From: Zootoca vivipara
Lineage: Eukaryota
Direction of reading: 5' to 3'
Length of the DNA: 64,000 nt
Assembly (NCBI RefSeq): GCF_963506605.1
Contig: NC_083277.1
Location: 82,398,001 to 82,462,000, forward strand
The notes under the pieces: model-generated
What the model was told of the DNA's origin: nothing
Databases searched by the model: none
Seen by the model: the letters and a program-made list of their open reading frames with translations, nothing else
Program-made: the position numbers and the translations under genes
Shown: positions 46,301-49,300 of the stretch, piece after piece
Position numbering within the stretch: the first letter of the stretch is position 1
Layout: the number at the start of each line of letters is the position of its first letter

Positions 46301-49300
46301 AAGCCCGCTTTGCGCGCGTCGCTTGCTTGTCGTTCCACCGGGATTCCTGCCTCACCCCCACCGCCAGAGCTGCTTTGCTCAGCTGATCCATAGTACTGGG
46401 CTTTGGACCTCTCGAGAGTTCATCCTTCACCTCCTCGCTCAAACCCAAGTAAAACGCAGCTTGCATGGGAGGCGAATCCAAAACCCACCCCAGTCTGTGC
46501 ACCAGCATGGTGAATTTCGCCCAATATGCGCGAACTGTCATATTTCCTTGGCGTAAATTATGCAGTTCCTCCTTAGTCTGGTCCAAATGACTATCGGACG
46601 AATACATCGTCCTCAAACCTTCTAGAAATTGTTGGACATTTTTCATGCAAGGATTCTTGGTTGCGATTAATGGTCTTAGCCACTCCCTGGCTGCTCCGGT
46701 GAGATGTTCCACAATAAACGCTACTCTGTGCTCATCATCGGGGAACTCATTCTGGTGCAGCTCAAGAGCATACACGATCTCAGTCTCAAAGCCCTGAAAC
46801 TCCTTCGGGTCTCCATTGAACTTGCTTACAAGGGTCCCTGCTCTCCTTCCTGGCAGCACTTGGACTTGGGGAGCCCCTCCCGCCTTGTTTTTCTCTGCAT
46901 CCAGCTTGTTTTGGAGGTCTACCGCCACCGCCCTTAAATGCTGCTCTTTTTCCTGGAGCTCTCTCACCTGTTCCGCAAGTTGTAGCCGGTCGTCCTGGAC
47001 CTTCTTAGTCTCCTCTTTAGCTGCCTTCAATTCTCCCTGCGCCTGCAGCGACAGCTGTTGCAGTTCTAGCTGGGCTTGCTCAGCGATCTGCCGCCACTTC
47101 TCCGCCTCGGACACGCTCATCCCGGCAACTCCGAAGTAGCCCAAAAATGATTAGGAGGTTGCTGTCACAGTGGCCGGAGTGGACTACTTCAGAGTAACGA
47201 CGCTACGCAGCTCTGCATTTTATTCTTTTATTGGTGCTGCGTATTTACAGTGCTCAAGTCATTGCTATTTACACGGAGCGATGTTGTCAGTCGGTTTCAG
47301 AACCTCCTAATGGCTTTTGGCGCGTCTTTCTCCAACACAAAAGCTTTGGCAGACCCATCCTCTTGCCCCTCCTCTTCCTGCGTAATTCTGGAGTTGGGGG
47401 GATGGGTCTTCCCCCCTTACTTGCCCCTTCCTGTCCCACCTGGGACCCTGGCTCCTCTACCCTGCCTGAGCCTCGGACACGACTTCCTGCTTCCCCACTG
47501 GAATCGGAACTCTCCCTGCTTTCCCCTTTGCTCGGGGACGGGCTTGAACTCAGGAGGGGAGGGACTTCGCGATATCCCCTGTCCCTCACACACCAGAAGC
47601 AGTTTAGTCATGCTGGCCACATGACCCGGAAAGCTGTCTGTGGACAAACGCTGGCTCCCTCAGCCTGAAAGCAAGATGAGCACCGCTACCACATAGTCAC
47701 CTTTGACTGGACTTAACCGTCCAGGGGTCCTTTGCCTATATAATTAAGCCACATAAGCAGGATGGTACCAAATTCACCCTGTTCCAGAGGTGGAACGGAC
47801 TGGCTTGACCAAAGGCTGTTTTTCCCACAATAGCATTCTTACATATATAATTTATGAACTGTTGTCATTATGAACACCCTGCTGTTTAGGACACGAGGAT
47901 CAAAGCAGTTTAGTGCTGTAAGCACAGACATAGCCAATTATTACAGTTGGTGTGAAGGATTACCTCAAAGGAAGATGGGTTCTGTGCTACTGTAGTTTAG
48001 AGCAGTGAGCCACCTTGGTCGCATGCATAGTAGAATCATAGAATCATACGAGTTGGAAGAGACCACAAGGGCCATCCAGTCCAACCCCCTGCCAAGCAGG
48101 AAACAGTAGTAGACCCATTGAAGTCTATGGATTTGACTTAAATAACTTGGTTTCAATGGATCTAGCAGAGGATATTGCCCAGTGATTTGTGGGTTTTTTG
48201 GTCACCACTGGCCATCTTCCTCTTTTGGCAACAAATATGGCCCATCAAGTTTGTCACAGTAGCCACATTCAGAGTTGAAGACTTACCTTCAGCTGGCTGC
48301 CAGGTCAGCCTGCTCATGTCTTCCCGCTTCTGGTTAGCAGCCAAGTTCATCTCTTGCACAGTGATGATGTTGAAAGATGAGAACAAGTTCTAGGGTGTGG
48401 AGAGAAAAGCCATACAGGGTATGGTGACAACTCAAAGAGATTCCATATTATGCTGTTAGTTGAAGTTATAGCCCAGTGCTAAACTCCTTAAACGGACTGC
48501 TTTGGAAGTTCTCCCAACCTTTTAAGGTGGTTTTGGAAGCTGCAACACACCCAAGAGAGTAAAGCTCTTTAACTGTGGATTAACTAACAGTCTAGCATTC
48601 TCTTCTCCATATCCTGAATATCCTAGTTCTGAGTAGAGTTTCTAAGAGCTAACATAGTAGTGGAAAAAAAGGAGACGTGGGTCCTGGTTCAAATCTCAGC
48701 TCAACCAAGAGATTCACTAGAATGCCTCTAGTGAGTCACTCATTGTGAGCTTCAGTCCCTCATCTGCAAGACAAGAGAAATAAATGCTGGCATGCCTCAT
48801 AGGCTTTCTTGTAAAGGGATGTGAAGAATATATGTGGAGCATTTAGTATTTTGTCCAGTGCTTCCCCCCCATGATAGTTTAGCATTGCTCACTCAGGCCC
48901 AGGAAGCATTAACACCTTTCACTCTGGGCAGTATTACAAAAGAGACCTACCAGCAAGTTAACAACAGCAGGCATGGAGCCATTGACGCTCTCTCCCCTTT
49001 CAAACTGGTGCTCTAGACGGATGAGAACGGAGTCGGGCTCCCATTGGGCCAGCGTGAGCAAATGGACATTTGAAGGGAGAGCCTGGTGCAGAGCAGAGAA
49101 CTGGGATTGGGGAAGGAGAGAGTCAATCAGACAAGCATAATATGACACCACCAGATTAGAACAGAGCTGAGATTCACTAGCTTTTACTTTACTGATCAGC
49201 CATTTCAAAGAGTTGTCGTAAAAACATTCCAAAGCAATAAAGTAAGAAAAAAGTGACACAAGTAAGTTGTGACAGTCAGCAAAAGATAACAGGCTCAAGA

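Follow-up and report, generated by a model that had tools for sequence, protein, structure and literature searches.

The closest described systems to the element analysed here are Tf1 and Tf2 of Schizosaccharomyces pombe (and Tj1, Tosmo1-3 and Tcry1), which are likewise chromodomain Ty3/gypsy retrotransposons. In Tf1, as in the present element, the primer-binding site (PBS) complements a sequence of the long terminal repeat (LTR) and not a tRNA, and a duplex with U5 lies adjacent to the PBS (PMC10085805, PMC4600332). Self-priming is described as common to the Tf1/sushi elements, with a demonstration in Tf1 and implicated members in hosts ranging from fungi to vertebrates (PMC6317226, PMC4600332, PMC10085805); for vertebrate elements it is only “implicated”, as against its demonstration for yeast Tf1 (PMC4600332). 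The vertebrate Tf1/sushi (V-clade) chromoviruses sushi-ichi and Amn-ichi/ni/san share domain set, host range and predicted self-priming with the element studied here (Butler et al. 2001, as cited in PMC6317226 and PMC10085805). Among plant elements, self-priming is predicted for 83% of Tcn1 chromoviruses and 89% of TAR copia elements in REXdb, by the rule that a complement of at least 10 bp starts 0-5 bp past the 5' LTR (PMC6317226). Here, a stretch of 64,000 nt from Zootoca vivipara (GCF_963506605.1, NC_083277.1, 82,398,001-82,462,000) was analysed, which is referred to as the window and to which all coordinates below belong. It carries on its minus strand, at 47590-41778, an LTR retrotransposon of 5,813 bp that, by analogy with Tf1, very probably uses the 11 nt at the start of its own RNA to prime reverse transcription. 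Both this mechanism and its expected presence throughout the Tf1/sushi group, vertebrates included, are already in print, as an earlier note on this DNA had indicated, and the concept is unchanged; no paper on self-priming in a squamate element was found in the literature search.

The 5' LTR (47163..47590, minus strand, as for all features of the element below) is 428 bp long and of the form TG...CA. Its terminal CA at 47164-47163 is followed by GC at 47162-47161 and then by the PBS, AACCTCCTAAT (47150..47160), with TGG absent. The PBS is exactly complementary over 11 nt to ATTAGGAGGTT (47311-47301) within the LTR, which is the predicted self-primer and the putative first 11 nt of the RNA, placing the likely U3/R border at 47311. 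Both the lack of a tRNA-type PBS and this complement had been claimed in the earlier note and are confirmed, the coordinates and letters being correct throughout. The self-primer of Tf1 is likewise 11 nt long. The duplex has an energy of -14.5 kcal/mol; no Watson-Crick match of the LTR with the 140 nt around its end is longer (the runner-up is 7 nt), and an 11-nt match starting 0-5 nt past the LTR was obtained in 10 of 20,000 dinucleotide shuffles of the LTR. An 11-nt complement at 2 nt also falls under the rule applied to Tcn1 and TAR, whose hosts are plants and for which self-priming is a prediction only. Unlike Tf1, the element resides in a vertebrate host and its priming is predicted from sequence; relative to the vertebrate sushi elements, the prediction is backed here by compensatory changes across subfamilies and by the spacing of a TATA-like box, support of a kind that the literature search did not turn up for a squamate.

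The element belongs to a family with 1,017 candidates, in which 40 of 40 scored copies are identical across 47050-47350 (301 bp); the family is young and abundant. Covariation within it was consequently uninformative, and the comparison was made with sister subfamilies and further clades of this genome instead. Relatives were gathered by profile searches, with 60 fetched regions of 9.9 kb and the window giving 61 in total; clade A comprises sister subfamilies with Pol 75-97% identical, while identity is about 53% for Pol in clade B, 35-47% in clade C and 27% for Gag in clade D. An LTR pair of at least 200 bp was present in 44 of the 61 regions, 42 of which could be scored. A perfect duplex of 10-12 nt was observed in 34 of these 42 elements and started 2 nt past the LTR in 33; for the remaining one, the LTR end had been mis-set and another determination also gave 2 nt. 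The same search in host flanks, as a control, gave at most 7 nt in the 34 duplex elements. Among the eight failures, five (L067, L069, L071, L089 and L097) displayed the duplex at 2 nt once the LTR end was found directly, and one (L078) has a mismatch. A 10-nt match in L088 was dropped as spurious, as it sits inside gag.

Changes in the primer are accompanied by changes in the PBS. In clade A, the primers ATTAGGAGGTT (window), ATTCGGAGGTT, ATTCGGAGGTA, ACTTGGAGGTT, ACTGGGAGGTT, ATTCGGGAGTT and AGTGCCGGATT are each Watson-Crick matched to their own PBS, and clades B, C and D carry unrelated primers that match theirs: (T)AGATGAGTCAT, GCCACAGCAA and GCGGGAGCAA (L064, 3' LTR copy), in clades with Pol 36-54% identical, and AGTGTCTGCAA, the last belonging to clade D, for which the LTR pair was not found. 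In alignment A1, which holds 31 clade-A 5' regions picked for a perfect duplex, 7 of the 11 primer pairs have changed on both sides and 100% of cells are paired; a further clade-A variant outside A1 adds an eighth such pair, giving 8/11. When this duplex and the U5/leader stem described below are taken together, 8 pairs of A1 change on both sides, compared with 3.0 in shuffles (0/500), and sliding the registers lowers pairing from 98% to 29-52%. Since the rows of A1 were selected for a perfect duplex, the count was repeated with the primer and PBS columns masked. This extraction covered 140 loci, some places possibly having been fetched twice: 93 were read, 3 were gapped and 44, mostly of other clades, did not fit the clade-A templates. 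Pairing was 11/11 in 83 of the 93 (30 of the 83 being identical family copies), and the other ten consist of two register slips of perfect duplexes, one deletion beside an intact PBS and seven loci with one or two mismatches, six of them transitions at a CpG, as expected of post-insertion decay. Moreover, among RNA reads of a related organism, some have a change at 47308 and others the matching change at 47153. The covariation that the earlier note had put forward as a check is seen not within the family, whose copies are identical, but between subfamilies and clades as matched changes of primer and PBS, and its proposal of self-priming is supported by these changes together with a partial host tRNA set that offers no fit.

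The lock-step pattern may have a mechanistic origin. If the primer is retained, plus-strand synthesis would regenerate the PBS sequence from it in each cycle, and such copying would keep the two 11-mers complementary and explain why they change together; in Tf1, about half of the cDNA retains the full PBS, copied as single-stranded DNA (PMC11042837). Selection on pairing would yield the same pattern, and on either account the 11-mer would be the primer. Priming from the 11-mer, variants in trans included, is regarded as close to certain. It is very improbable, by comparison, that the duplex serves another structural role, such as packaging, dimerisation, translation or control of poly(A) addition, with something else used for priming. 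Other hairpins are indeed present in the 5' region, and in clades A and B the 3' LTR copy of the 11-mer is part of the pol frame, which places the 11-mer under a second constraint. A coding constraint cannot, however, explain matched changes in a PBS that is non-coding; furthermore, the partner of the 11-mer sits exactly where a PBS belongs, 2 nt past the CA of the LTR, in all clades, and no other primer source was found.

The primer could also be a host tRNA or a fragment of one, as in the half-tRNA priming of copia-type elements, and this was examined with a tRNA set obtained by ARAGORN from 50 loci (62 genes, 48 distinct, 21 anticodons), from which the six isotypes Arg, Glu, Trp, Tyr, Val and Sec are absent. 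None of the 48 distinct genes pairs from its CCA end with the window PBS. The best internal match is 9/11 with G-U, and the longest contiguous run is 6 nt, which was equalled by 94 of 100 shuffled tRNA sets, so that the check proposed in the earlier note gave no fit within this set. Moreover, one clade has at least seven variants of the PBS, each following its own LTR, and a single tRNA could not produce such tracking. A point on the other side, besides the incompleteness of the set, comes from clade C, where the PBS plus 2 nt (L063 and other loci) pairs over 12 nt, with one G-U, with positions 35-46 of tRNA-His(GTG). This match was reached by 2 of 100 shuffled tRNA sets and was one of 13 tests; the clade C LTR primer itself resembles the same tRNA segment. 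It may be a chance match, may point to dual priming, or may mean that the self-primer derives from a tRNA. For the window element, priming by a tRNA is considered the most improbable of the explanations weighed here, with next to no probability.

For the 11-mer to serve as self-primer in the manner of Tf1, the RNA would have to begin with it, and a start at 47311 is probable from the arrangement of the promoter. At about -31 from the first purine of the primer, a box is found in each sister lineage: ATAAAA/TTAAAA in B1, ATAAAG in B2, TACTTAAG in two subfamilies of D, and ATAAAA in three of four promoter types of clade C, one of them shifted by a base. Older clade-A members have TCTTAT, TGTTAT or TATTAT at -31, and the window has the T-rich box TTTTGT (47337..47342), a putative degenerate TATA at the position of its relatives' TATA-like box. 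In four lineages a pyrimidine-purine step about 31 nt downstream of the TATA-like box marks the sharp limit of complementarity between primer and PBS. The TATA-like boxes at -31 in lineages B1, B2, C and D make 47311 the probable start site. As to the earlier note, its start at or near 47311 finds support in the sharp end of pairing and in the box of the sister lineages, and none in the RNA reads, which show no start there; its description of the promoter as TATA-less applies to the window subfamily and not to the older relatives (TCTTAT/TATTAT) or the sister lineages. The “AT-rich stretch” in logos of Sushi LTRs (PMC3601003) had prompted TGTAAATA as a further TATA candidate. It is unlikely to be one, as the start would then coincide with the likely poly(A) site at 47215 and R would all but vanish. 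In Tf2, RNA from a downstream start lacks the primer and is not reverse transcribable (PMC5341516).

At the other border of R, CACTGTAAATA (47242..47252) is invariant in 31/31 aligned relatives. It lies 9 nt before AATAAA and is presumably a UGUA-type upstream poly(A) element. Two AATAAA signals, at 47232-47227 and 47224-47219 (47219..47232 together), are located within an 8-bp stem (47243-47236 / 47211-47204), which encloses both signals as well as the likely cleavage site and is weaker in older subfamilies. The likely cleavage/poly(A) site and R/U5 border at 47214..47215 was located from RNA read ends. The RNA data consist of three 2026 raw-read runs of a related organism, of which about 6% was read; in run X17, the ends of 21 molecules fall on 47215 (depth 56), which lies 12 nt past the first AATAAA, and read depth drops across the bins at 47215 in X17 and X18, the reads coming from relatives that are mostly 90-95% alike. 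No pile of ends at 47215 was present in runs X18 or X19. With the poly(A) site at 47215, R would be about 97 nt long and the U5 arm of the stem described next would fall within U5.

A second duplex borders the PBS. The U5 arm (47195-47180) pairs over 16 bp with the leader arm (47143-47128), which ends 8 nt before the gag ATG, and the two departures from Watson-Crick pairing, at 47191/47132 and 47183/47140, are both G-U on the sense strand, as the earlier note had described. A stem of this length was reached by 0 of 2,000 shuffles, and it is 8.5 kcal/mol stronger on the sense strand than on the antisense strand (-25.5 vs -17.0 kcal/mol). In A1, 96.6% of its cells are paired, with four pairs varying on one side and one pair on both, and the majority of its changes preserve pairing. 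The non-Watson-Crick cells comprise 65 G-U, 7 A-C and 8 other, corresponding to 5, 3 and 4 distinct states, respectively; the G-U bias of the stem is real, but it rests on few events. Because the primer duplex and the U5/leader stem cross as a pseudoknot, RNAfold displays one at a time. With the PBS held free, the rest folds at -45.9 kcal/mol with the stem formed; addition of the -14.5 kcal/mol of the primer duplex gives about -60 kcal/mol for the cut state, compared with -51.9 kcal/mol for the best nested fold, a rough sum in which pseudoknot penalties are ignored. Tf1 is described with a “pretzel” of three duplexes (PMC10085805), of which only two are clear in the window element; the end of U5 (with CA at 47164-47163) and the 2-nt spacer GC, together 47161..47179, form a weak hairpin only. 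A 9-nt gap at the U5 end of L116 was considered as a test of the need for the third duplex and was uninformative, as the gap is in the 5' LTR only.

The proposed sequence of events can be given as follows. RNA polymerase II would start at 47311, by analogy with Tf1, and the capped 5' end of the RNA would fold back onto the PBS, clamped on the other side by the U5/leader stem. Subsequently, the RNase H of the element would cut after nt 11 to give a 3'-OH, from which the reverse transcriptase (RT) would copy about 140 nt, made up of the 2-nt spacer, U5 and R, before jumping to the 3' copy of R. The primer duplex could gain 3 bp beyond nt 11 (47300-47298 CTG with 47164-47162 CAG) over one bulged base. 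Of 93 clade-A loci, 92 have C immediately 3' of the primer, and the spacer opens with G in every clade listed. This 3-bp extension may set the RNase H cut.

The 11-mer might alternatively act in variants in trans, rather than from the start of the same RNA. Covariation in sequence cannot separate cis from trans, and most LTR reads are read-through and not products of a start at 47311. In addition, pairing in the window can run on upstream, 47320-47314 with 47147-47141, across a 2x2 loop. In sister subfamilies, however, this extension shifts in register and is either shortened to about 5 bp or absent, and the U5 arm competes for the bases that it occupies; a 20-nt primer that includes the extension was rejected, since the extension is not conserved. 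The sharp end of complementarity about 31 nt after the TATA-like box in four lineages also argues for a primer that begins at the RNA start, and the Tf1 primer is the mRNA's own 5' end (PMC10085805). Priming in trans is thus judged improbable, though less so than a purely structural role or tRNA priming.

Several observations weigh against self-priming from a start at 47311. Regarding transcription, no pile of RNA 5' ends was found at 47311 in the three runs, about 6% read; U3 read-through from a wide variety of upstream flanks makes up the bulk of the reads, and the sole nearby pile consists of 5 molecules at 47330 in one run and did not recur. The window's own box at -31 is not a consensus TATA. 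Regarding structure, the U5/leader stem of clades B-D clearly beats shuffles in one of six elements (L072, 0/300), a crude duplex test giving no clear excess over shuffles in L068, L074, L085, L086 and L090, and the third Tf1-like duplex is weak or absent, with hairpins between the U5 arm and the PBS of 0 to -4.6 kcal/mol that shift in register. Regarding the comparison, L076 and L079 yielded no duplex, the 44 of 140 loci noted above lie outside the clade-A templates, the relatives are not independent samples, and the tRNA set lacks six isotypes. With these points included, self-priming in cis remains very probable.

The base directly after the PBS, C at 47149, faces the predicted cap position and is unpaired with the genomic base at -1, which is also C. 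In clade A, 92 of 93 loci have C at this place, and position -1, just before the primer, is occupied by C in 92 and by T in 1; a C or T at -1 cannot template this C. The same C is present in B2, in both clade-C primer types and in two of three clade-D copies, which makes 5/6 lineages with unrelated primers. Reverse transcriptases can add C opposite the m7G cap, in a cap-dependent addition. It is possible, though rather doubtful, that the C is a cap-reading base: on copying the retained capped primer at the end of plus-strand strong-stop synthesis, the RT would add C opposite the m7G cap, and the element would keep a C after the PBS so that the added base pairs at the second strand transfer. 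Tf1 RT is described as adding non-templated bases to most cDNA 3' ends (PMC11042837). Against this idea, lineage B1 has A after the PBS, which pairs with its T at -1, and one clade-D copy has T; moreover, the lineages are related by descent, and the C might have a structural role. A search for outgroups gave nothing in viral_contigs and no duplex in 15 examined of 53 metagenome loci, 5 of the 15 having a long direct repeat. No paper stating cap-dependent C addition for self-primers was found in a search that extended to few subscription papers and not to the primary papers on Tf1.

The remaining anatomy is as follows. The 3' LTR (41778..42205) is 100% identical to the 5' LTR over the 428 bp, with TG start and CA end, and carries the second copy of the 11-mer at 41926-41916; the element is flanked by a target-site duplication, TGGTG, at 47591..47595 upstream and 41773..41777 downstream, and a polypurine tract lies at 42206..42219. 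The gag gene (45894..47120, ATG at 47120) encodes 408 aa with matches to Retrotrans_gag, Ty3_capsid and DUF4939 and a CCHC knuckle, which reads CX2CX4HX4C in translation; a PDB search with Gag was without match. The pol frame (41902..46044, 1380 open codons) overlaps gag, and within the overlap a G GGA AAC slippery heptamer (46023..46029) with a downstream stem of -21.4 kcal/mol predicts a -1 frameshift. Unlike the fission-yeast members, the element thus combines a CCHC Gag, a gag/pol overlap and a predicted -1 frameshift (PMC10085805), and Tf1/sushi members outside fission yeast are described with a -1 frameshift at gag/pol and CCHC in Gag (PMC10085805). Pol is arranged as PR-RT-RH-IN-SH3-chromodomain, all domains being above cut-off (RVP_2, RVT_1, RT_RNaseH, Integrase_H2C2, rve, SH3_Tf2-1 and Chromo), and its best PDB match is Ty3 Gag-Pol. 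RNase H motifs were found in the translation. The RT motif is FLDD and not YLDD in 17 clade-A loci, and FLDD occurs in 11 of 107 homologs scored; a lesion of RT was ruled out, as the motif is family-wide (clade A and lacertid homologs). The pol frame continues through the polypurine tract, the whole of U3 and the 3' primer copy (window 42205-41902) and stops 16-25 nt into R, so that U3 and the primer are also coding. This run-through is common to clade A and the distant clade B (window, L085, L086, L091, L092, L094, L095, L105, L106 and L113).

The closest Gag protein bears a lacertid lizard label (96% identity), and the closest RT-RNase H sequences are lacertid (66-73%), followed by those of Anolis, gecko, snake, fish and amphibian at about 44-54%. 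By its sequence, the element is classed as a chromodomain Ty3/gypsy retrotransposon of a lacertid lizard and, from its domains and this identity gradient, as probably of Tf1/sushi type. The protein P0001, with Gag 96% identical to that of the window, carries the source label “lysophospholipase-like protein 1 isoform X1”, which is probably a mis-annotation or a chimeric gene model. The element is inserted in sense orientation between two late GH38 alpha-mannosidase exons (matches near 48344 and 40296, minus strand), with weak Pfam GH38 matches further upstream. In this orientation, the poly(A) signals of the element could end the host transcript ahead of its last exon.

Further features were observed among the relatives. 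Many clade C copies are short (L070, L072, L075, L078, L080, L089, L099 and L103), with LTRs about 2.5-3 kb apart, most of pol missing and an R/U5 of 230-490 nt of pyrimidine-rich tandem repeats, and retain the primer/PBS pair; they are likely non-autonomous derivatives. In lineage B2 (L090, L091 and L093), about 11 extra nt after the PBS resemble a degenerate second PBS copy, which is absent in B1. Large arrays of approximately 96-bp tandem units at G000:C5:3.31-4.17 Mb are related to part of the clade D LTR, and this satellite was apparently derived from, or captured by, an LTR.

The analysis extends an inferred mechanism to squamate reptiles, with evidence stronger than complementarity alone. 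At least seven matched primer/PBS variants in one clade, together with unrelated matched pairs in three others, constitute a natural compensatory series, and the match of primer and PBS gives a way to predict start sites from sequence. Furthermore, as at least 40 copies of this very young family are identical over 301 bp, no engineering would be needed to read endogenous start sites and cDNA ends. If the cap-reading idea is true, the PBS plus C would be a genomic record of the capped start site in self-priming elements, and the lizard family, being very young and present in many copies, would lend itself naturally to a direct demonstration of self-priming in a vertebrate.

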